From the NCBI GenBank assembly GCA_026387175.1, contig JAPLME010000008.1, forward strand, positions 149,883 to 213,882: a stretch of 64,000 bases of DNA. The letters run 5' to 3'. The stretch comes from Candidatus Omnitrophota bacterium (GTDB taxonomy: Bacteria > Omnitrophota > Gorgyraeia > 2-01-FULL-45-10). How positions within the stretch are numbered: the first letter of the stretch is position 1; each line of letters starts with the position of its first letter. A model generated the notes under the pieces. The model was not told the DNA's origin. It saw only the letters and a program-made list of their open reading frames with translations, and ran no database searches. Positions 6,303 to 62,220 of the stretch are shown in pieces. Position numbers and translations under genes: made by a program.

Positions 6303-6480
6303 GATGGATTTTTTGGCTTCGTCAGATGGCAGAACTTTTTGGCACCTTACTGGAGCGACTTTCTAAAATTTCGATACCTATAGGCGGTACAGGCTTCACC
6401 ATCGAAATTTTAGCAACAGCGAGCGAGGAAGCCTATTCCGAGCGAGCGGCAAGCGGAAGCAGGTGCCAAAAGTGAATGCC
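6303..6480 (+). repeat. Y-type repeat, truncated copy Y4 (short variant)
   Basis: CAGATGGCAGAACTTTTTGGCACC...AAAATTTCGATACCTATAGGCGGTACAGGC...ATCGAAATTTTA...GAGCGAGCGGCAAGCGGAAGCAGGTGCCAAAAGT. Outer arms TTTTGGCACCT/AGGTGCCAAAA are complementary. Homologous to 15625-15780. Confidence 0.5.
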
Positions 6481-6511
6481 ATCACGTTGCAGCCAAAAAA
6501 TCAAACGAGAT

Positions 6512-7971: not shown

Positions 7972-10900
7972 ATGCACTTTAAATCCCTAGAGCTGGTGGG
8001 TTTTAAGTCTTTTGCCGAAAAGACGAAGCTTAATTTTGAGCCGGGCGTTACCGCTGTAGTCGGCCCCAATGGCTGCGGAAAATCCAACATAGCTGACTCT
8101 ATCCGCTGGGTGCTCGGCGAGCAGTCAGCAAAAAGCCTGCGGGCGTCCAATATGCAGGACGTCATCTTCAACGGCACCGACACCAAAGATCCTATCAATT
8201 TTGCCGAAGTATCCTTGACATTTTCCAATGAAAAAAGAACTCTCCCGATAGACTACGATGAAGTCACGATAACCCGCCGCGTATTCCGCTCAGGCGATAG
8301 CGAATATCTTTTAAACAAAACCCCCGTAAGGCTGAAAGACATAGCGGACCTTCTGATGGGAACCGGTATAGGCACGGAGAGCTATTCCATTATCGAGCAG
8401 GGAAAGATGGACCTGATACTCAGCTCGAAGCCGGAGGACAGGCGCTATGTATTCGAAGAGGCCAGCGGCATCACTAAATATAAATCCAAGAAGAAAGAGG
8501 CCCTGCGCAAACTCGAGCAGACCGAGCAGAACCTGCTGCGCATAAATGATATTATAACGGAAGTGAAACGCCAGATAAACTCTATCGAGCGCCAGGCGAA
8601 GAAGGCGGAACGCTATAAGGTCGATTACGAAAAGCTGAAGGATATGGAGGTCAAGCTCACCTGCCGCGAGTACAAGGGCCTGAAGATGCAGGAAGCCACG
8701 TTTACCGTAGAGAATGAAGATACGAAGGCAAGAGAGAGGGACCTTTCCGGTGAAATAAACGCGATCGCCCTGAAGATTTCCGAAGAAAGGCAGGCGCTGA
8801 ACGAGGTAAATAATAAGATTTTGAATTTAAGGAACCGCTCTTCGGAGATCTCGAATTCGCTCGATATGAATAAGCACAAGATCGAAATAGATAAAGAGAG
8901 GATCGAGGAGGCCCGCATATTACAGGAGGGCCTGAACAGAGAGATCAAATCGGCAACCGATAAGATAAATAACGCTAAGGAGCAGGTAGGTAAATTAAAG
9001 ATCGATCTTGACAGGGCGGTATCGGAGAGGGCCCTGAAGCAAAAGACCGTTGAAGAACATGAACTGCTTTTATCGAATATCGCCAGAGAGCTGGAGGAGA
9101 CCGAAGAGAAGGCCAAGGTCTTCAAGATACAGATAGTGGAATTCCTGGCAAAAGAGACACATATAAAGAACGACCTGATAAAGATAGGCGCCGATGTTCA
9201 GAACAGGAAGATGCGTCAGCGGAGGCTCGAGATAGAAAAAGATGAGGTGGGGAAGGAGCTGGAGTCCACTGAGGGAGCCTTGTCGGGTGTGCTGGTGGAA
9301 TTTAAGACCATAGAAGACAAAGTCGTCGGACTCAAGACGGGCCTCGAGGCGAAGAAGCTTGCTAATGAAGAGGTCATATCCGCGATAGAGAATATAGAAT
9401 CGGATATAGCCAGGGAAGAAAACAATAAAGCCGCGACAAGGTCGAAGATCGAAATGCTGGAAGAGAGCCTGAAGACGCACGAGGGATTTAAGAGCGGGGT
9501 GAAGAACCTGCTCATTAAGGCCAATGAAGATAAGGTTTCATTCAGCGGGGTCCTCGGGGTATTGGCGGATATAATAAAAGTCGAAAAAGGTTACGAAGAG
9601 GCTGTAAGTACGCTCCTGGGCGATGACGCTCAGCTGATAATTACGGAAAATGATAATGACATAGTGAGGGCTATCGAATATTTGAAGAACGGCAGGTTTG
9701 GTAAAGCAAGCTTTGTCTCTCTTGAAACATTGAGGAAGGTAAGCCGAAGCGCGGATCTCCGGCTTAACGAAGCTCTCCATAAGCCATTGAGCAGTTTTGT
9801 TCATATAGATGAGCGGCTTAAACCGGTTATTGAATATTTCTTCGTAAATTCTTATCTGATAGAATCTGTAGAAGAAGGCATGAGGAGTTGCGGCGCCAGC
9901 CCCGCGGTATTTGTAACAAAGTCCGGGCACATGTTCGATAATTGCAAGGTTTCGGGCGGAAGCGCGAGCGAAGGCGAAGAGTCGCTGCTGATAGGGCGCA
10001 GACAGAGACTGGATGACCTGAGGAACGAGCTTAGGACCTGTGAAGAGAGAGGCATAGCGCTTGTTGCCGTCAGGGATGAAAAGAAATCGGCCGGCAGGGC
10101 CCTGGAGACCGAGATAGAGTCCACAGATTCCGCGCTAAGGCAGGAAGAGATAAATTACGCCAATGCCAAAACTAAAAAGGACGCTCAGGAAGAAGCGGGC
10201 AGGAAACTCGCGGACGAAATGTTCCTCCTTGGATCGGAGCTGGATGAGGTGAATCAGATCATAAACGATCTCACCGCGAAGGGCACGGCGCTGAATATTG
10301 AGCTGAATAAGATCGAGGTTGAAAAGACCTCGATGCAGGAATTTATAGATCGATCCCAGGCTTTTATACTTGATAAAAAGTCTGAACGGGAGAGGACCGC
10401 GCTGGAGATGGCGACATTGAGAGCCGAGGTCCAATCGCAGGAAAAGGAAGAGGAGAATGTCCGTAATAATCTCAAGTCGCAGGAAGCCATAGTTTTCGAA
10501 CTCGAGGATACATTATATGCCAAGGACGCCTTAGCGAAGGAATCGAGCGAGAAAGCTAAGTCTCTGGAATGCGAGATAGGTAATCTGACCAGCCAGAACC
10601 AGATATTAGAAAATGACCTAAAGATCCTTAATGAGGAATCCTCCGCCGTAGAGGGCTCGAGGGCCGATATCGGGGCGAGGCTCAATATGGACGAGACGCA
10701 GTTGAAAGAAAAAGAGGCGCAGCTGGAGACCTTCCGTAACCTTATAAGGGATCTTGACGTAAAATTGACAGAGCTTAATTTCAAGAAGTCGAATTTAAAG
10801 GACAGGATGCTTCAGGCGCACAAGTTCGACCTTGAGATGACACCTGTGGAACTTGATGAGCAGATAGACTGGGAATCGATAAGCGTGCAGGTCTCGGAGC

Positions 10901-13276: not shown

Positions 13277-13304
13277 TTGACAAGTCATTAGAAATCGATA
13301 TAAT
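13277..13304 (+). promoter_or_regulatory. sigma70-type promoter (TTGACA-16 nt-TATAAT) driving the FMN riboswitch/ribBA
   Basis: Perfect consensus hexamers TTGACA (13277-13282) and TATAAT (13299-13304). Confidence 0.55.
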
Positions 13305-13308
13305 GAAG

Positions 13309-13445
13309 GGGTCTTCGGGGTGGGGTGACCTGCATTGGCGGGAATTCCCCGGCCGGCGGTAAAGCCCGCGAGTCCCTGTGTCCGAGGGGCAGAACTTGTG
13401 AGATTCAAGTGCCGACAGTACAGACTGGATGGTAGAAGACGCCTC
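13309..13445 (+). ncRNA. FMN riboswitch (RFN element) aptamer
   Basis: Conserved RFN blocks are present: CTTCGGGGTGGGGTGA...GGGAATTCC...GGCGGTAAAGCCCGCGAG...CCGAGGGGCAGA...GAGATTCAAGTGCCGACAGTACAGACTGGATGGTAGAAGA. It sits in the ribBA leader. Confidence 0.85.
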
Positions 13446-13483: not shown

Positions 13484-13516
13484 AACCCCCGAAGCTTTTT
13501 AGGGGGTTTTTTATTT
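13484..13516 (+). terminator. intrinsic terminator (riboswitch expression platform)
   Basis: AACCCCC-gaagcttttt-AGGGGGTT followed by a T-run, 16 nt upstream of the ribBA RBS GAGGAG. Confidence 0.6.
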
Positions 13517-13532
13517 TGAGGAGCGAAAAAAC

Positions 13533-14729
13533 ATGAAACTGAATACGATTCCAGAAGTTCTCAGCGACCTTAAAAAAGGCAAGATGGTCATAGTCATAGA
13601 TGATGAGGACCGCGAAAACGAAGGTGATCTCATAATGGCGGGACAATTTACCAGGCCCGAAGATATAAATTTCATGGCCCGTGAAGGTCGCGGCCTGATA
13701 TGCGTCCCTATGGAAGGAGCCAGGCTGGATGAGCTTGACCTGCATCCGATGTCGTCCAGAGCTTTTGACCCGTATAAGACCGGCTGGGCGATATCCTGTG
13801 ACGCGAAGAAAGGAATAACTACAGGCATTTCAGCAAACGACAGGGCGCGCACCATAAATATTTTGGCAAGTTCCAAATCGAAGGCATCTGATCTGGTCAA
13901 GCCCGGGCATATCTTTCCGTTAAGAGCTAATGAAGGCGGCGTCCTCGTCAGGGCCGGCCACACAGAGGCATGCGTTGATCTGATGAAGCTATCCAGGCTG
14001 TATCCAGCCGGTGTTATATGCGAGATAATGAAGGACGACGGCACGATGGCCAGGACCCCCGATTTAATAGCATTCGCCGGCACGCACTCCTTGAAGATAT
14101 GCACCATGGAGAGCCTGATAGAGTACAGGCGTAAGTCTGAAAAGCTGATCAAGAGAATAGCGCAGACAAATATGCCTACGCCTTTCGGCAATTTTAAAGT
14201 CTTTGTTTACGAGTCGCTCGTCGATAAACAGCATCACCTCGCCCTTATCAAGGGAAGGCCCGACAAAAATGACGCGCTGGTCAGGGTGCATTCGGAATGC
14301 CTGACAGGAGATGTATTCGGATCCAAAAGATGCGACTGCGGCGAACAGCTTCATACCGCGATGAAGCTGGTAGATAAGAACGGAAGCGGCGTTATACTAT
14401 ATATGAGACAAGAGGGTCGCGGCATAGGGTTGGCTAATAAGTTGCGGGCTTATGAGCTGCAGGACAAAGGGATGGATACCGTTGAGGCCAATGAAGCCCT
14501 GGGTTTTAAGCCCGATCTGAGGGATTATGGTATAGGGGCGCAGATACTCGCGGATCTGGGATTGAAGAATATAAGGCTCCTTACGAATAACCCGAAAAAG
14601 ATAGTGGGTCTGGAGGGGTATGGCCTTAAGGTGATAGAGAGAGTGCCGATACATGTCCTGGCGAACAAGGCCAACGCAAAATATCTTAGGACCAAGAGGG
14701 AGAAACTGGGTCACGACTTGAAAGTGTGA
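13533..14729 (+). CDS. ribBA: bifunctional 3,4-dihydroxy-2-butanone-4-phosphate synthase / GTP cyclohydrolase II
   Basis: 398 aa. N-terminal DHBP synthase (DDEDRENEGDLI) and C-terminal GTP cyclohydrolase II Zn site (CLTGDVFGSKRCDCG). Confidence 0.9.
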   Translation: MKLNTIPEVLSDLKKGKMVIVIDDEDRENEGDLIMAGQFTRPEDINFMAREGRGLICVPMEGARLDELDLHPMSSRAFDPYKTGWAISCDAKKGITTGISANDRARTINILASSKSKASDLVKPGHIFPLRANEGGVLVRAGHTEACVDLMKLSRLYPAGVICEIMKDDGTMARTPDLIAFAGTHSLKICTMESLIEYRRKSEKLIKRIAQTNMPTPFGNFKVFVYESLVDKQHHLALIKGRPDKNDALVRVHSECLTGDVFGSKRCDCGEQLHTAMKLVDKNGSGVILYMRQEGRGIGLANKLRAYELQDKGMDTVEANEALGFKPDLRDYGIGAQILADLGLKNIRLLTNNPKKIVGLEGYGLKVIERVPIHVLANKANAKYLRTKREKLGHDLKV

Positions 14730-14802: not shown

Positions 14803-15267
14803 ATGGTAAATGTGATAAAGGCGGATTTGGTTGCAAAGGGGAAGAAGTTCGCGATAACCATATCGCGGTTCAACGAGTTTATATCATCGAAGCTTCTTGA
14901 GGGATGCATCGACACACTTAATCGTCATGGTGTCCAGGAGAATTCGATAGATGTGGTGTGGGTGCCGGGGGCATTCGAAATACCGATGATCGCGCAAAAG
15001 TGCGCGAAGTCAAAAAAGTACGACGCGGTTATATGCCTAGGTACGGTCATAAGAGGCGCGACGCCTCATTTTGAGTTTGTGGCGAGCGAGGCCGCCAAAG
15101 GTGTCGCGAAGATATCGCTCGATACTAATGTGCCGTGCATATTCGGCATCATCACAGCCGATAATATCGAGCAGGCGATCGAGAGGGCTGGCACGAAGGA
15201 CGGCAACAAGGGCCGCGACGCGGCGCTCTCGGCCATCGAGATGGCTAATCTGTACGCGAAGCTATAG
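14803..15267 (+). CDS. ribH: 6,7-dimethyl-8-ribityllumazine synthase
   Basis: 154 aa with the lumazine synthase signature VPGAFEIP. Confidence 0.9.
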
Positions 15268-15850
15268 ATTTTTCGGCTGCAAGCGATAGTCTAGAGCCTT
15301 CGGGCACTTGCTTTCGCTTGTTGCGGTTTATCCCTCGCGGGGCGGTGCTTCGCAGGGACGCGAAATTTCCCCTGCGAGGAAATTTCGCTCGGAAAGATCG
15401 CTCGCTCTTTTTGGCATACAGGTATACCAGGGCCAAAAATCCGTGCCCGCTCGCGACTTTCGACGCCCTGCTTAGCACCGCCCCCGCGAGGGATAACTGA
15501 GTAACGAAGAAGATAGTGCCCAAAAGCTCCCTGCACTATGCAAGGAGCCGAAAAAATTACTGGGGGTAGTGAGCAGAGAGTGAGATTGTAACAGTGAACG
15601 GAGGCGAAAATATCCTTCAGTACGTCAGATGGCGGAACTTTTGGGCGATGCTGAAGCGACTTTATAAAATTTCGATACCTATAGGCGGTACAGGCTTTAT
15701 CATCGAAATTTTATCAAGAGCGAGCGAGGAAGCCTATTCCGAGCGAGCGGCAAGCGGAAGCATTGACCGAAAGTAAACGCCGGACTGAGATGTTTCTAGG
15801 ATATTTTCGCTGTAGTGAGGATATTTTCAGTGCGAACCATAACTTCGGTT
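15268..15850 (+). repeat. composite structured repeat: X-type palindrome (X1, ~15268-15570), linker, Y-type element (Y3, ~15603-15850)
   Basis: X1 has an 18-29 bp TIR GGTTTATCCCTCGCGGGGCGGTGC/GCACCGCCCCCGCGAGGGATAAC around the core palindrome GCGAAATTTCC-cctgcga-GGAAATTTCGC. Y3 has outer TIR GGCGAAAATATCC (15603) pairing with GGATATTTTCGC (15810) and a nested hairpin AAAATTTCGATA...TATCGAAATTTT. Homologous to 24094-24657. Confidence 0.6.
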
Positions 15851-15912
15851 TAGGTCCAAACTGGAATTTGAAGGATGCTGTTGCCGTAGTTGCAAATGAA
15901 TGAGGAGGGAAG

Positions 15913-16332
15913 ATGAGGAAGCGAACAGTCGCGAGAGAATCTGCGCTTAAGATACTATATGCGGTCGATATTACGAAAGAAGCGCCGGACAAATGCATAG
16001 ATAATTTTTGGTTGTCGCAGGATAAAGTGGAAAAAGAGGTGATGAGTTACGCTAACGATATTGTCCTTGGCGTCTGCCATAATAAAGCGCGTATCGATAA
16101 GGTGGTATCGGAATGCGCGACGAATTGGGAGCTCGACAGGATGGCGGTTATAGACCGCAATATACTACGATTAGGTACGTACGAGCTTATATTTATGGAA
16201 GAGGTCCCGCCGAAGGTCGCCATCAATGAAGCGATCGATATCGCAAAGAGATACGGCGATAAAGACTCCGGAAAATTCGTGAACGGTGTGCTCGACAAGA
16301 TCAGTAAGGAAAAGAGAAAACCGTCCGAATGA
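15913..16332 (+). CDS. nusB: transcription antitermination factor NusB
   Basis: 139 aa with typical NusB fold residues (ARESALKILYAVD, DRNILRLGTYEL). Confidence 0.85.
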   Translation: MRKRTVARESALKILYAVDITKEAPDKCIDNFWLSQDKVEKEVMSYANDIVLGVCHNKARIDKVVSECATNWELDRMAVIDRNILRLGTYELIFMEEVPPKVAINEAIDIAKRYGDKDSGKFVNGVLDKISKEKRKPSE

Positions 16333-17165
16333 AGTACGCCGATCTGCATGTCCACACGTTCTATTCCGATTCGACTTTTTCGCCGGAGGAGGTGGTTTCC
16401 TGCGCCAGGGACAGGGCGCTTGCGGCCATAGCCATATGCGACCATGACTCCGTGGACGGAATAGAGCCTTGCCTGGCGATCGGAGATAAGCTGGGTGTTG
16501 AGATATTACCGGGTATCGAGCTTAGCGCGGAGAAATCCGACGCCGAGATCCATATACTCGGATACTTGATGGATTATAATCTCGGCTGGCTTCGCAAACG
16601 GCTCAAAGAGCTTCAGGAAGCCCGCATAGACCGTATCCATAAGATGGTTGAGAGACTGAACTCCAAAGGCATCGACCTGAAAGCTGAAGATGTCTTTAAG
16701 ATCGCGGGCCGCGGCACGGTCGGAAGGCTGCATCTGGCGCTTGCGATATTAAATACGGGAAAAGTGAAGACGATAAAAGATGTTTTCGGAAAGTATATAG
16801 GTTTTAGAAAGCCCTGTTATGTGGCAAATTTGAAATTAACTCCGGAGGAGGCTATAAGTATTGTCCTGAGAGCCGGAGGGGTTCCGGTGCTGGCCCACCC
16901 CGGTTGTATGGGCAGGGACGAGTATATACCGGAACTGATCGGGCATGGACTTCGCGGAATTGAGGTTTATCATACGGATCATGGCGCAGGCGCGGTTAAA
17001 CGATATCAGAAGATAGCAGAAAAGAACGATCTCCTTGTCACGGGCGGATCCGACTGCCATGGCCTCGGAAAAGGGAGGATTCTGCTGGGGGAAGTCAGGG
17101 TGCCTTATACGCTTGTAGAGAGATTGAAGGAAGAGTCGGGAAAGATCAAGAATGAACACAGATAA
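16329..17165 (+). CDS. PHP-domain metal-dependent phosphoesterase
   Basis: N-terminal DLHVHTFYSD and downstream His/Asp motifs (ICDHDS, HPG, GGSDCHG). Confidence 0.7.
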   Translation: MKYADLHVHTFYSDSTFSPEEVVSCARDRALAAIAICDHDSVDGIEPCLAIGDKLGVEILPGIELSAEKSDAEIHILGYLMDYNLGWLRKRLKELQEARIDRIHKMVERLNSKGIDLKAEDVFKIAGRGTVGRLHLALAILNTGKVKTIKDVFGKYIGFRKPCYVANLKLTPEEAISIVLRAGGVPVLAHPGCMGRDEYIPELIGHGLRGIEVYHTDHGAGAVKRYQKIAEKNDLLVTGGSDCHGLGKGRILLGEVRVPYTLVERLKEESGKIKNEHR

Positions 17166-18243
17166 GAAATATATGTCGCTGGCCATAGAGCTCGCTAAAA
17201 AAGCTGAGGGACGGACGAGCCCCAATCCGCTCGTCGGAGCCGTTATAGTAAAAAGAGGCAAGATAGTCGGGAAAGGTTATCATAAAAAATGCGGCCTCCC
17301 GCACGCGGAAATGAATGCTATAAAGGCCGCCGGAGATGCGGCTGGAGGCTCTACGCTGTATGTCACGATGGAGCCCTGCGATCATTACGGCCGGACCCCG
17401 CCCTGCACTGATGCGATCATAAAGAGCGGGATAAAAAGAGTTGTTATAGCGATGAAGGACCCTAATCCGATAACTGACGGACGCGGTATAAAAAAACTTA
17501 AAGCGCATAAGATAAATACGAAAGTCGGCGTCCTGGAAAAAGAGGCGCGGGCCATAAACAGGCCTTTCATAAAATTTATTACAAAAAAATTGCCGTTCGT
17601 CAGGGTCAAAGTCGCTGAGTCGATCGACGGCAAGATAGCCACAAAGAGCGGAGATTCGAAATGGATAAGCGGGGAAGCGTCGCGCCGGTATGTGCACGGC
17701 TTGCGCAGCAGAGTAGATGCCGTTATGGTCGGCTCCGGGACTGTGCTTAAAGACGATCCAATGCTTTTATGCAGGATACCTGGAGCAAAACAGCCTCTTA
17801 GGATAATAGCGGACAGCAGTTTAAAGATGCCGTTTACTTCAAAACTGTTTTCCACGGCCGGCAGCCATTCGGTCCTGATCGCCACCACGAAAAAGGCCCC
17901 TTTCAAGAAAGCCGAAGTGTATGCGAGAAACGGTATAAGCCTGTTATTCTGCAAAATAAAGAATAACAGAATAGATCTTAAGGACCTATTGAAAAAACTG
18001 TCATGGCTGGGCGTTACCGATCTTTTAGTCGAGGGCGGAGGCGAGCTGGTGGCGGGCCTCGTCGAGAAGAAGCTCGTAGATCAATTCATATTTTTCATAT
18101 CTCCGAAAATAATAGGCGGCAGGGACGCGAAGACAGCCGTGGAGGGCACAGGCGTCGATAAAGTCGCCGACGCGGTAAAGCTTAAAAATATTTCGATACG
18201 GATGTTCGAAGACGATGTAATGATAGAGGCGGAGGCCGCTTAA
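17152..18243 (+). CDS. ribD: bifunctional riboflavin biosynthesis deaminase/reductase
   Basis: CMP/dCMP-type deaminase Zn motifs (HAEMNAI, TMEPCDHYGRTPPC) plus a C-terminal reductase domain. Confidence 0.85.
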   Translation: MNTDKKYMSLAIELAKKAEGRTSPNPLVGAVIVKRGKIVGKGYHKKCGLPHAEMNAIKAAGDAAGGSTLYVTMEPCDHYGRTPPCTDAIIKSGIKRVVIAMKDPNPITDGRGIKKLKAHKINTKVGVLEKEARAINRPFIKFITKKLPFVRVKVAESIDGKIATKSGDSKWISGEASRRYVHGLRSRVDAVMVGSGTVLKDDPMLLCRIPGAKQPLRIIADSSLKMPFTSKLFSTAGSHSVLIATTKKAPFKKAEVYARNGISLLFCKIKNNRIDLKDLLKKLSWLGVTDLLVEGGGELVAGLVEKKLVDQFIFFISPKIIGGRDAKTAVEGTGVDKVADAVKLKNISIRMFEDDVMIEAEAA

Positions 18244-18878
18244 TGTTTACTGGCATTATACAAGAGTTAGGAAGCGTGCAGAATATCAATAGAGTCGGCA
18301 ATATTTACAAACTCGATATCCGCTCGAACAGCATATATAAAGACGTCAGGATAGGTGACAGCGTCGCTGTCAACGGTGTCTGCCTGACTGCGGTCTCTAA
18401 AAAGAAAGATATATTGAGTTTCGATCTGATGGCAGAGACGATACGCAATACGAGCTTTGCCGGATTGAAGAATAACGACAGGGTCAACCTGGAAAGATCT
18501 CTGAAAGCGGGTGAGACGCTGGACGGGCATTTCGTCTTGGGGCACATCGATTGCGCGGGAGTAATAAAAAATATCAGGAAGATAGGCGATGATTTTATGA
18601 TAAGTATCGCCTTTCCCGGCGGCTTCGACCGTCTTGTGGTCGAGAAGGGATCGATCGCGGTAGATGGTGTGAGCCTTACGGTAAGCCATGCGGGCAAAGA
18701 TACGTTCGATGTCCACATCATACCGCATACATTGAAATCCACGATACTCGGTACAAAAAAATCGGGTGACAAAGTGAACCTCGAATTCGATATACTGGGG
18801 AAGTATATCGCAAAAGAAAGGGATGCCGGCAGCCGGCCGCGCGTAACGGAGGAATTCCTGCGAAGCAAAGGATTCTAA
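18243..18878 (+). CDS. ribE: riboflavin synthase alpha subunit
   Basis: MFTGIIQELG start and the duplicated lumazine-binding repeat (GDSVAVNGVCLT / GSIAVDGVSLT). Confidence 0.85.
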   Translation: MFTGIIQELGSVQNINRVGNIYKLDIRSNSIYKDVRIGDSVAVNGVCLTAVSKKKDILSFDLMAETIRNTSFAGLKNNDRVNLERSLKAGETLDGHFVLGHIDCAGVIKNIRKIGDDFMISIAFPGGFDRLVVEKGSIAVDGVSLTVSHAGKDTFDVHIIPHTLKSTILGTKKSGDKVNLEFDILGKYIAKERDAGSRPRVTEEFLRSKGF

Positions 18879-18905: not shown

Positions 18906-19364
18906 ATGATATATTTAGCTATAAAGAAGGGGAGGTATGATATGGCGATAAGGAAGATGATTGCATTGGTGATCGCGGTTACTTTTATGGTGAGCATTAC
19001 CTCGCCGGTATTATTCGCGTCTTGCGGGACTTGCGGTAAACCTGCATCGGATGCCGAATGCGCTAAGGTGATGGCGAAGGATACGTGCGATAAACCCAAA
19101 GGAGACCCGCTGAGGAAATTAGGCCGAGGATTGGCCAATTGCCTGACTTTCCCCATTGAGATACCGAACCGTATATCCGACGTAAATAATTCCGACGGCC
19201 CGATGGCTGCGGTTACATACGGCCTGGTCAAGGGCACTGTAATGAGTCTCTTTAGAGCGATGATCGGGGCATATGAAGTCCTGACCTTCCCGATCCCGTT
19301 TCCGGGCGGTTACAGGCCTATAATTAAAGATCCTGAATTTATACTGGAAGACTGGAACGCCTAA
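18906..19364 (+). CDS. hypothetical exported Cys-containing protein
   Basis: N-terminal hydrophobic segment IALVIAVTFMVSITSPVLFA and motif CGTCGKP. No family recognised with confidence. The start may be Met 18942. Confidence 0.45.
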   Translation: MIYLAIKKGRYDMAIRKMIALVIAVTFMVSITSPVLFASCGTCGKPASDAECAKVMAKDTCDKPKGDPLRKLGRGLANCLTFPIEIPNRISDVNNSDGPMAAVTYGLVKGTVMSLFRAMIGAYEVLTFPIPFPGGYRPIIKDPEFILEDWNA

Positions 19365-19389
19365 GAATCATAAACTGTTTGAGTAATTT

Positions 19390-19423
19390 ATGCCCCGGGC
19401 AGATGATGCTCGGGGCATTTTTG
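19390..19423 (+). terminator. intrinsic terminator
   Basis: ATGCCCCG-ggcagatgatgct-CGGGGCAT followed by TTTTT. Confidence 0.5.
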
Positions 19424-19481
19424 CTGCCCAAAATATCTTTGTATATAGTCCCTAATATGATATTATATTATACTAAATGAG

Positions 19482-24089: not shown

Positions 24090-24093
24090 ATTT

Positions 24094-24657
24094 TTCGGAT
24101 TCTATAGTTTGTCCCTTGCGTGTGGGTGCTTCGCGGGGACGCGAAATTTCCCCTGCGAGGAAATTTCGCTCGGAAAGATCGCTCGCTCTTTTTGGCAAGT
24201 AAGCGTACCAGGGCCAAAAATCCATGCCCGCTCGCGACTTTCGACGCCCCGCTCAACACCCACACGCAAGGGACTGCTGAGTAGTCCGAAAAATTTACTG
24301 ACAGGGTGAGTAGAGAGTGAGATTGGGATGGTGAGCGGAGGCGAAAATATCGCATGATGGATGGCGCCCCAGGTGATATCCTCAGGCAGCGGAACTTCTG
24401 CGGGAAGCCTGGAGCGACTTTCGTAAAATCTTGATACCTATAGGCGATATACCAGGACAATGAAACTGCGCGACAGTTTTTTACGTATAGGCAGGTTCAT
24501 TGGCCATCAAGATTTTACAACAGCGAATTTACATGCCTAATGTAAATCTGCGACAAGCGGAAGGCTTACCGCAGAAGTTTCGATGCTGTAGGAGAAATGA
24601 AGGGGGCGAGCCCCTGAGGATATTTTCGCCGTAGTGAGGATAGACGTAACTTCGGAA
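24094..24657 (+). repeat. composite structured repeat: X-type palindrome (X2, ~24094-24300), linker, Y-type element (Y2, ~24344-24657)
   Basis: X2 has an 18-bp perfect TIR GTCCCTTGCGTGTGGGTG (24111) pairing with CACCCACACGCAAGGGAC (24257) around the same core as X1. Y2 is near-identical to Y1 (1044-1250). Confidence 0.6.
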
Positions 24658-61930: not shown

Positions 61931-62220
61931 GTGAAAATATTCCTGGTGGATATATCTGATGGCGGAACTTTCGGCTCGATGCTGGAATAATTGCAGTCAT
62001 TTTACGGGTGACGCAAGATCCAGCCTTGAGGGGCGCAGCGTAGGATGGGTTCAATATAGCTACCCGCCTGGATGGACTGATATTGTAAACCCTACGCAAG
62101 CACCGAAAGGCGATCTTGCGGCAGGACCCGTAAAATGATGCTGTTCAGCGGAAGCATTGACCGAAAGTAAACGCCGGACTGAAGATTCCGATATAATATT
62201 TTCGCCGTAGTGAGGAACTA
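61931..62220 (+). repeat. Y-type structured repeat, copy Y5 (variant with nested hairpins)
   Basis: Outer TIR GGTGAAAATATTCC pairs with AATATTTTCGCC. Nested TIR GGCGGAACTTTCGGCTC pairs with GACCGAAAGTAAACGCC. Inner hairpins TCATTTTACGGGT...ACCCGTAAAATGA, CGCAAGATC...GATCTTGCG and GCGTAGGATGGGTT...AACCCTACGC. 3' tail GTAGTGAGGA. Confidence 0.55.

Follow-up and report, generated by a model that had tools for sequence, protein, structure and literature searches.

The spacer between ribH and nusB in a 64,000-nucleotide (nt) stretch of metagenome-assembled DNA (hereafter the window), whose organism was assigned to Candidatus Omnitrophota via NusB homologues, is probably a nest of X and Y, which belong to a superfamily of interspersed repeats, modular, non-coding and able to form hairpins, that are widespread in Candidatus Omnitrophota and would be selfish and here co-transcribed with the operon, whose riboswitch control they would leave intact. 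We favour a selfish nature because the modules are multi-copy, lie only in spacers, occur in both orientations, are present, absent or exchanged at orthologous sites, and keep their stems by compensatory changes. Labels such as L041 or L008 denote loci or contigs from relatives or metagenomes.

Anatomy of the ribH-nusB spacer

According to an earlier note on this DNA, ribH and nusB are separated by a composite repeat with strong hairpins, within what looks like one transcription unit under the control of a flavin mononucleotide (FMN) riboswitch. Pfam, Rfam, the promoter and folding confirmed this. The repeat fills the entire spacer (15268-15912, 645 bp): the ribH stop codon TAG (15265-15267) abuts it, the X hairpin begins 1 nt past the stop, and two adjacent long hairpin modules, X and Y, are followed by a tail:

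15268-15557, + strand: X element (290 bp), a long nested hairpin closed by the frame ATTTTTCGGCT ... AGCCGAAAAAAT (arms and minimum free energy (MFE) fold)
15326-15497, + strand: X core, two inner hairpins with the conserved motifs TCGCTCGCTC and GCCCGCTCGCGA
15558-15602, + strand: purine-rich linker TACTGGGGGTAGTGAGCAGAGAGTGAGATTG..., common to the second composite (24286-24351) and L041
15603-15810, + strand: Y element, frame GGCGAAAATATCC ... GGATATTTTCGC (13 bp, perfect) around the Y core (arms and MFE fold)
15625-15787, + strand: Y core (covariance model R1, 162.6 bits, E 6e-39)
15811-15912, + strand: tail, with GTAG, a second AGGATATTTTC (15818-15828), a small hairpin fragment and the nusB ribosome binding site (RBS)

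The MFE of the spacer is -256.7 kcal/mol, against -204 +/- 6 in shuffled sequences (z = -8.4 on the plus strand and -7.7 on the minus strand). Perfect arms measure 15 bp (15328-15342/15482-15496, the longest perfect pair in the spacer), 13 bp (15604-15616/15798-15810, the Y frame), 11 bp (15360-15370/15378-15388) and 10 bp (15269-15278/15546-15555, the X frame), with a further X stem at 15294-15313/15510-15529; a 17-nt arm pair is 94% complementary and the longer stems, including one of 27 nt, are imperfect. The phrase 'multiple long perfect hairpins' in the earlier note mildly overstates the length of the perfect arms. The Y frame of this spacer encloses a 151-nt core, the small hairpin fragment of the tail (~15828-15860) is shared with modules of L008 and L022, and the nusB RBS GAGGAGGG (15902-15909) is unpaired in the MFE fold.

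As the window is a metagenome assembly, the interior of this repeat-filled spacer could be mis-joined; the adjacency of ribH and nusB is kept in all relatives. Seven Logan contigs from other samples with an identical NusB all end 92-158 nt 5' of nusB, within the repeat, as is expected because the DNA is multi-copy.

Two further features of the spacer were noted. X 15385-15409 is perfectly complementary to both P3 arms of Y at 15716-15746 (12 + 10 nt); conserved base pairing between X and Y was rejected as a family trait, this complementarity not being present in the second composite at 24090. The tetranucleotide GTAG recurs just 3' of the ATATTTTCGC frame arm (15812-15815, 15566-15569, 15886-15889, 24631-24634 and 62207-62210), and likewise next to nusB in L041 and L008. 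GTAG is also the conserved flank of enterobacterial repetitive extragenic palindromes (REPs), a likeness that may be coincidental.

Structure of the Y core and of X

In 18 aligned copies the Y core runs, in order, through the P1 stem, CTGRAGCGACT, the P2 hairpin, ACAGC, the P3 hairpin, GCGRCAAGCGGAAG and the P1 closing strand CAAAAGTAAACGCC; P1 takes the form GGCGGAAC-TTTTG-variable ... variable-CAAAAGTAAACGCC, and P3 has a GCCTAAT-like loop. RNAalifold detected compensatory changes in 18 of the 33 pairs of the Y alignment, and covariance model R1, built from the alignment, retrieved 39 Y matches from 303 kb of Omnitrophota DNA (cmsearch). Of the cells in the 39-sequence alignment 96.2% pair, a share that falls to 35-40% once the partners are slid; double changes affect 25 of 33 pairs, and none of 500 shuffles matches the observed covariation score. 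The stems of X are kept by compensatory change between the two window copies and the distant metagenome-assembled genome (MAG) L036. Such changes argue against either module being coding; since they are already known in DNA-level REPINs (REP doublets forming hairpins), the covariation of Y shows selection for the fold and not RNA function.

Around this scaffold the copies vary: minimal versions without P2 and P3 occur in L022 and L034, unrelated hairpins replace P2/P3 in the window copy Ye and in L017 and L046, and one P3 type retains tandem G-A mismatches. A loop-E-like internal loop in P1 (GA / AAA) was considered and dropped, as the Yc/Yd type can pair those positions and the motif is not conserved. 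One Y copy (L037 1230-1430) bears a seven-fold tandem of the heptamer GCAAGCG in the conserved junction before AGCGGAAG. Some scaffolds hold unrelated long palindromes in place of P2/P3 (e.g. AGGGGACGTGTCACTTTGGGACACTCCACTTT... in L017), and the Ye copy (61955-62181) contains the motif CAGGACCCGTAAAA, near-identical forms of which occur in other contigs; these palindromes and this motif suggest additional repeat families in these genomes.

Copies in the window and distribution among genomes

The window holds five Y and two X copies between unrelated housekeeping genes. X 15326-15479 recurs with 90% identity at 24107-24260, the Y core 15625-15787 has counterparts at 6322-6486, 1041-1247, 24382-24593 and 61955-62181, and a third X copy was found in L036 (4880-5070). 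Both X-Y and Y-Y composites are seen. The copies outside the ribH-nusB spacer are:

960-1300, + strand: Yd (Y core 1041-1247)
6303-6505, + strand: Yb, in the asd-truA spacer, frame ATTTTTTGGC...GCCAAAAAAT (Y core 6322-6486)
24090-24642, + strand: second X-Y composite, directly 3' of an xerC/D-like gene (X core 24107-24274, Y core 24382-24593)
61931-62220, + strand: Ye, upstream of recA, with Y termini and a different interior (36 nt identical to 15753-15788)

Copies of the repeats occupy five of the eight window spacers longer than 150 nt and about 3% of the window DNA. They lie only in spacers, flush with stop and start codons, and their neighbours encode or include an OppF-like ATPase, a HhH-GPD glycosylase, asd, truA, xerC/D, a CCA/poly(A) polymerase-like protein, ligT and recA. 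Orientation was the same as that of both flanking genes in 10 copies and opposite to both in 7. At Yd, the last 17 codons and the stop (960-1018) of the open reading frame (ORF) of the OppF-like ABC ATPase (242-1018) lie within the repeat, CCCCGAAAAAT...GGCGAAAATATCGTATAG, which seems to have replaced the native C-terminus.

A Y signature of 29 nt from the 3' end (AGCGGAAGN9AAAGTRAAYGCC), scanned against species-representative genomes, was found at 38 loci, about 30 of them in 10 Omnitrophota MAGs and about 7, at chance level, in other phyla; one further match, in a MAG labelled Planctomycetia (L047), also fits the Y model. The Omnitrophota MAGs bearing the signature come from groundwater, lake sediment, digesters and marine water. 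No Y signature was found in viral contigs, and the exact 21-nt end motif ATATTTTCGCYGTAGTGAGGA is lineage-specific, neither genome nor metagenome collections giving a match. Rfam 15 at permissive thresholds returned only chance-level miRNA and snoRNA matches (E > 0.1, far below gathering), and a literature search on Omnitrophota repeats, MITEs (miniature transposable elements with inverted repeats) or RNA motifs found nothing relevant. Judged from these searches, the X/Y family is previously undescribed and without a relative in sequence or in Rfam.

Turnover of the spacer in relatives

The same spacer differs greatly in length among relatives:

L056: 16 nt
L009: 121 nt
L051: 126 nt
L054: 217 nt, with an IS30-like element and a partial Y
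L041: 644 nt
L008: 670 nt

L008 and L009 encode an identical NusB protein and their spacers differ by ~550 nt. The closest relative is L041, whose flanking genes are 85-91% identical to those of the window and which retains both the frame beside the ribH stop and the frame beside the nusB RBS. Its first frame encloses the Y core of the window in inverted orientation (15627-15783 versus L041 3722-3878, 96.8% identical over 157 nt), and its second a Yc-type core. In the window, L041 and L008 alike the outermost frame motifs are kept and the interiors differ (X, inverted Y or other cores). An identity of the Y core above that of the flanking genes suggests either strong constraint or recent exchange. 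On these comparisons the content of the spacer is not a conserved device.

Other spacers behave similarly. The asd-truA spacer and the spacer downstream of xerD hold different family members in L008. The spacer 3' of the xerC/D-like gene, a second polymorphic nest, contains an X-Y composite in the window (24090-24642), is empty in L011 (54 nt, 9200-9255), and in L008 carries a different framed element (19316-19475), within which the contig ends.

The repeats within the riboswitch-controlled operon

The operon that surrounds the insert comprises the following features:

13277-13304, + strand: sigma-70 consensus promoter TTGACA-16-TATAAT (12/12), directly before the FMN riboswitch
13307-13444, + strand: FMN riboswitch aptamer (Rfam RF00050, 90.1 bits)
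13485-13517, + strand: terminator-type expression platform, ACCCCC...GGGGGT then a U-run, just 5' of the ribBA RBS (read from the sequence)
13533-14729, + strand: ribBA (Pfam)
14803-15267, + strand: ribH, lumazine synthase (Pfam DMRL_synthase, 2.5e-60)
15913-16332, + strand: nusB (Pfam)
16329-17165, + strand: PHP-domain protein gene (Pfam)
17152-18243, + strand: ribD (Pfam)
18243-18878, + strand: ribE (Pfam)
19390-19418, + strand: first strong intrinsic terminator 3' of the operon (12-bp stem and T-run)

The riboswitch before ribBA reads as a transcription-termination switch, and the genes from nusB to ribE (15913-18878, + strand) overlap or are tightly spaced in the ORF list. An FMN riboswitch lies 5' of ribBA in every relative checked for it (L051, L008 and L056), so the riboswitch-ribBA-ribH-nusB-PHP-ribD-ribE design is ancestral and the insert secondary. 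The riboswitches of L008 (6706-6876) and L056 (1971-2157) score 63-64 bits, just short of the Rfam gathering threshold of 66.2, on account of their greater length (171-187 nt), and default annotation would overlook them. At gathering score, Rfam reported one FMN riboswitch and one tRNA in the 64-kb window and nothing more. The perfect promoter (13277-13304) and the terminator platform (13485-13517) also indicate that this lineage uses promoter and terminator signals like those of Escherichia coli.

The earlier note had proposed for the hairpins a role in attenuation, RNase III/E processing or stabilisation by which nusB-PHP-ribD-ribE would be uncoupled from the FMN riboswitch; we regard this as unlikely. 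The spacer is very stable, its stems of 15 bp (perfect) and 27 nt (imperfect) are plausible substrates for a double-strand-specific RNase, and the X hairpin starts immediately beyond the ribH stop; Correia elements are bound and cut by RNase III and can create promoters (PMC2649163), and BOX-type repeats are thought to affect co-transcribed genes (PMC3049150). A terminator scan of 15268-15912 on both strands, however, found no stem followed by a U-run, although the same scan detects the site at 19390-19418, and a terminator or attenuator in the spacer was rejected accordingly. The frames place a U-run 5' and an A-run 3' of the stem, so that in neither orientation would they resemble an intrinsic terminator. 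Nor did a promoter scan of the repeat and the front of nusB, where the earlier note had suggested looking for a promoter, yield a credible candidate, the best being a 9/12 match at 15411-15440, inside X. No second FMN riboswitch for ribD or ribE was found in the window with Rfam, and the nusB RBS is left free. The content of the spacer is different or absent in close relatives, with the same Y core inverted in L041, so that there is no conserved regulatory design, and the same modules stand between unrelated housekeeping genes in both orientations. Taken together, the sequence leans against uncoupling, which is unsupported.

Since the repeat has no good promoter, the downstream genes would still depend on read-through from the riboswitch promoter, and the simplest interpretation is a repeat transcribed within the operon mRNA, with riboswitch control intact. 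The insert would then probably form a 645-nt structured untranslated stretch of that mRNA, and any effect would be a generic by-product of stable RNA hairpins and not that of an evolved regulator; the hairpins might, for example, shield the ribBA-ribH segment against 3' exonucleases or be cut by a double-strand-specific RNase. By likeness to REP, ERIC (enterobacterial repetitive intergenic consensus), Correia and BOX elements, an influence of the hairpins on mRNA processing or stability is plausible.

Frames, probable mobility and an IS30-family element

As selfish, non-autonomous DNA, X and Y would be spread or exchanged by some trans-acting enzyme or, alternatively, through recombination at the A/T-rich inverted frames that form their ends, ATTTTTCGG...CCGAAAAAT and GGCGAAAATAT...ATATTTTCGCC; the feature under selection would be the formation of a hairpin or cruciform, as in REPINs. 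The terminal inverted repeats are the frames ATTTTTCGGC...GCCGAAAAAT and GGCGAAAATATC...GATATTTTCGCC, perfect over 10-13 bp, which differ between copies by compensatory change. Our survey of frames covered 13 framed elements with ATTTTTYGG...CCRAAAAAT frames. Several of these end in TA...TA, which is ambiguous as a duplication because TA is self-complementary. The idea that frames are independent small hairpins that receive cores was discarded, since no empty frame was found in 655 kb and all 13 frame pairs enclose 143-290 nt.

The Y module is itself the target of an insertion sequence (IS) of the IS30 family, which has its own inverted repeats (GGGCTCAAGTTACTAGCGCAACA / TGTTGCGTTAGTAACTGGAATCTGCCC) and, in full-length metagenome copies, a transposase of 328-331 amino acids (aa). 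These copies have the 5' part of Y to their left and the 3' part to their right. At least 10 contigs share a single insertion point, which lies between GAGCGACT and P2 (L011 1-300; L015 4150-4494, minus strand; L054 1-372; L058, L061, L062, L067, L068, L107, L120 and L122). With Y halves on both sides, the IS must have inserted into Y and is not its parent; a derivation of Y by deletion of an IS30-like element was rejected on this ground and on that of the separate inverted repeats. Other subgroups of the same element sit in the palindrome GGGACAG/CTGTCCC, and the element thus appears specialised on palindromic repeats. Its use of Y parallels that of REPs as insertion targets by IS elements (PMC1525189). 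A word-indexed protein search with a 50-aa fragment of the transposase gave no match. No Y1 transposase (REP-associated tyrosine transposase, RAYT) was present among the 18 window proteins scanned, whole genomes not having been searched.

Alternative explanations

Several observations weigh against X and Y being selfish repeats. Between species, conservation of the Y core exceeds that of coding genes, and its long unpaired junctions are likewise preserved; this is unusual in selfish DNA undergoing decay and would fit a functional RNA or single-stranded DNA. In each of the three X copies seen, including that of a distant MAG, Y comes next in the same orientation, which hints at a larger unit, and all seven window copies are oriented with the genes. 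None of the 13 framed elements has a direct target-site duplication, the flanks extending the palindrome by 0-5 nt, and no mobilising enzyme was identified, the only nearby transposase being that of the IS30 family with its unrelated inverted repeats. A simple selfish-repeat model does not explain the branched core, the conserved junctions, the conservation above that of coding genes or the recurrent order of X and Y, and these four features leave a small chance of a more novel kind of element. That X and Y, singly or as a pair, are structured RNAs with a function of their own under RNA-level selection, such as a cis-acting module, a ribozyme or a protein-binding RNA, would draw on the strong covariation and on the conservation of CTGRAGCGACT, ACAGC and GCGRCAAGCGGAAG across 10 MAGs, as well as on the core being 96.8% identical between species with genes at 85-91%, the order of the modules in three of three cases (one in the distant MAG) and the G-A mismatches kept in one P3 type. 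We nevertheless consider it very unlikely, as the modules occur in both orientations with respect to transcription, even in the same spacer in L041, are present or absent among close relatives, have neighbours without a common function and lack a conserved flanking promoter or terminator; minimal variants dispense with P2 and P3 (L022 and L034), Rfam gives no match, and the excess of G-U over A-C pairs (22 versus 14, from an alignment biased toward the modelled strand) is not significant.

Site-specific recombination offers another explanation, in which the inverted end frames would be recombinase sites and the cores exchangeable or invertible non-coding cassettes, as in shufflons or integrons. 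Consistent with it are the outermost frames kept in the window, L041 and L008 around differing interiors, the absence of target-site duplications and of empty frames in 655 kb, and the tyrosine recombinase gene directly upstream of the second composite. This gene is, however, syntenic in relatives, including L011 with its empty adjacent spacer, and looks like a housekeeping XerC/D; the frames are only 10-14 bp long and vary by compensatory changes, and independent insertion of same-ended elements at a preferred site explains the same data, so that we hold recombinase cassettes to be highly improbable. Possible, though unlikely, is that X and Y form a new class of structured mobile nucleic-acid module, in which the branched fold and the junctions, and not the termini, would be recognised by an enzyme, with insertion or exchange taking place without target duplication in conserved A/T-rich hairpin frames beside stop codons. 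Either single-stranded DNA or RNA could adopt the fold, and, were X and Y such modules, the U-run before and the A-run after the stem on either strand would mean that they never terminate transcription and are tolerated in operons. In a stronger variant the Y core may have an RNA activity of its own, e.g. self-cleavage or protein recruitment. Selfish palindromic repeats remain our preferred reading.

Significance

Omnitrophota is an uncultivated phylum with compact genomes, and in this window a single structured repeat family fills most of the longer spacers. In practical terms, the family causes contigs of Omnitrophota MAGs to break, marks insertion hot spots and is the specific target of an IS30-family element. 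It also provides a clean comparative system, with the same operon spacer empty, small, or occupied by different or inverted modules among relatives, in which one can ask how strong hairpins are tolerated within an essential riboswitch-controlled operon. The unusually strong covariation of the Y core and its conserved junctions make it a candidate for a structure-specific recognition mechanism outside current models of MITEs and REPs.

Comparison with known repeat systems

Like REPs, bacterial interspersed mosaic elements (BIMEs) and REPINs, X and Y are extragenic, multi-copy and palindromic, assemble into mosaics whose modules alternate in orientation, occur next to stop codons and within operons, and show no classical target duplication. 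Compensatory changes are common in the hairpins of REPINs (PMC3116915), as in the stems of X and Y, and targeting by IS elements (PMC1525189) has its counterpart in the IS30-family element at one fixed position of Y. In contrast, REPs measure 20-40 nt and REPINs are simple hairpins of ~100 nt made of two inverted REPs, whereas X and Y span 160-300 nt and have branched cores, that of Y with three helices, and long conserved unpaired junctions. X and Y also share no sequence similarity with these repeats and belong to another phylum, the hosts of REPs and REPINs being Enterobacteria and Pseudomonas with a RAYT (TnpA-REP).

The pneumococcal BOX (boxA-boxB-boxC), RUP and SPRITE repeats are similar in being modular composites with conserved end modules, a variable interior and strong secondary structure, in being co-transcribed with their neighbours, as X and Y probably are at this locus, and in their restriction to one lineage. 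They differ in sequence and host, and SPRITE resembles a terminator, which X and Y do not. BOX modules are linear units of ~45-59 nt, unlike the nested hairpin-in-hairpin layers of X and Y. BOX, RUP and SPRITE have been judged parasitic, yet likely to affect co-transcribed genes (PMC3049150).

MITEs such as Correia elements (CREE) in Neisseria, ERIC in Enterobacteria and QMITE in Coxiella are likewise non-coding, intergenic and 100-300 bp long with terminal inverted repeats; X (290 bp) and Y (about 160-300 bp) fall within the size range of these non-coding, multi-copy elements (about 50-500 bp). Transcripts of MITEs fold into long hairpins (PMC10969869), and CREE affects neighbouring genes via promoters and RNase III (PMC2649163). 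Unlike MITEs, X and Y showed neither a target-site duplication nor a parent IS sharing their ends, and their termini vary by compensation, are not the best-conserved part and create no promoter.

Integron attC sites are also imperfect palindromes, conserved at the base and highly variable, sometimes branched, at the tip, and in them structure prevails over sequence. X and Y, however, are without an integron integrase, attI or gene cassettes and are dispersed between housekeeping genes, not arrayed, and the R/L box consensus (AAC...GTT) is not kept, the common Y type ending in GGCGGAAC...GTAAACGCC and not in RYYYAAC...GTTRRRY.

X and Y thus miss defining features of the classes to which they come closest, namely size and, among the window proteins scanned, a RAYT for REPs, and target duplication and a parent IS for MITEs. 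On the sequence evidence they appear to work like REP/BIME/REPIN, BOX and MITE elements, and are best read as selfish palindromic repeats of this kind.

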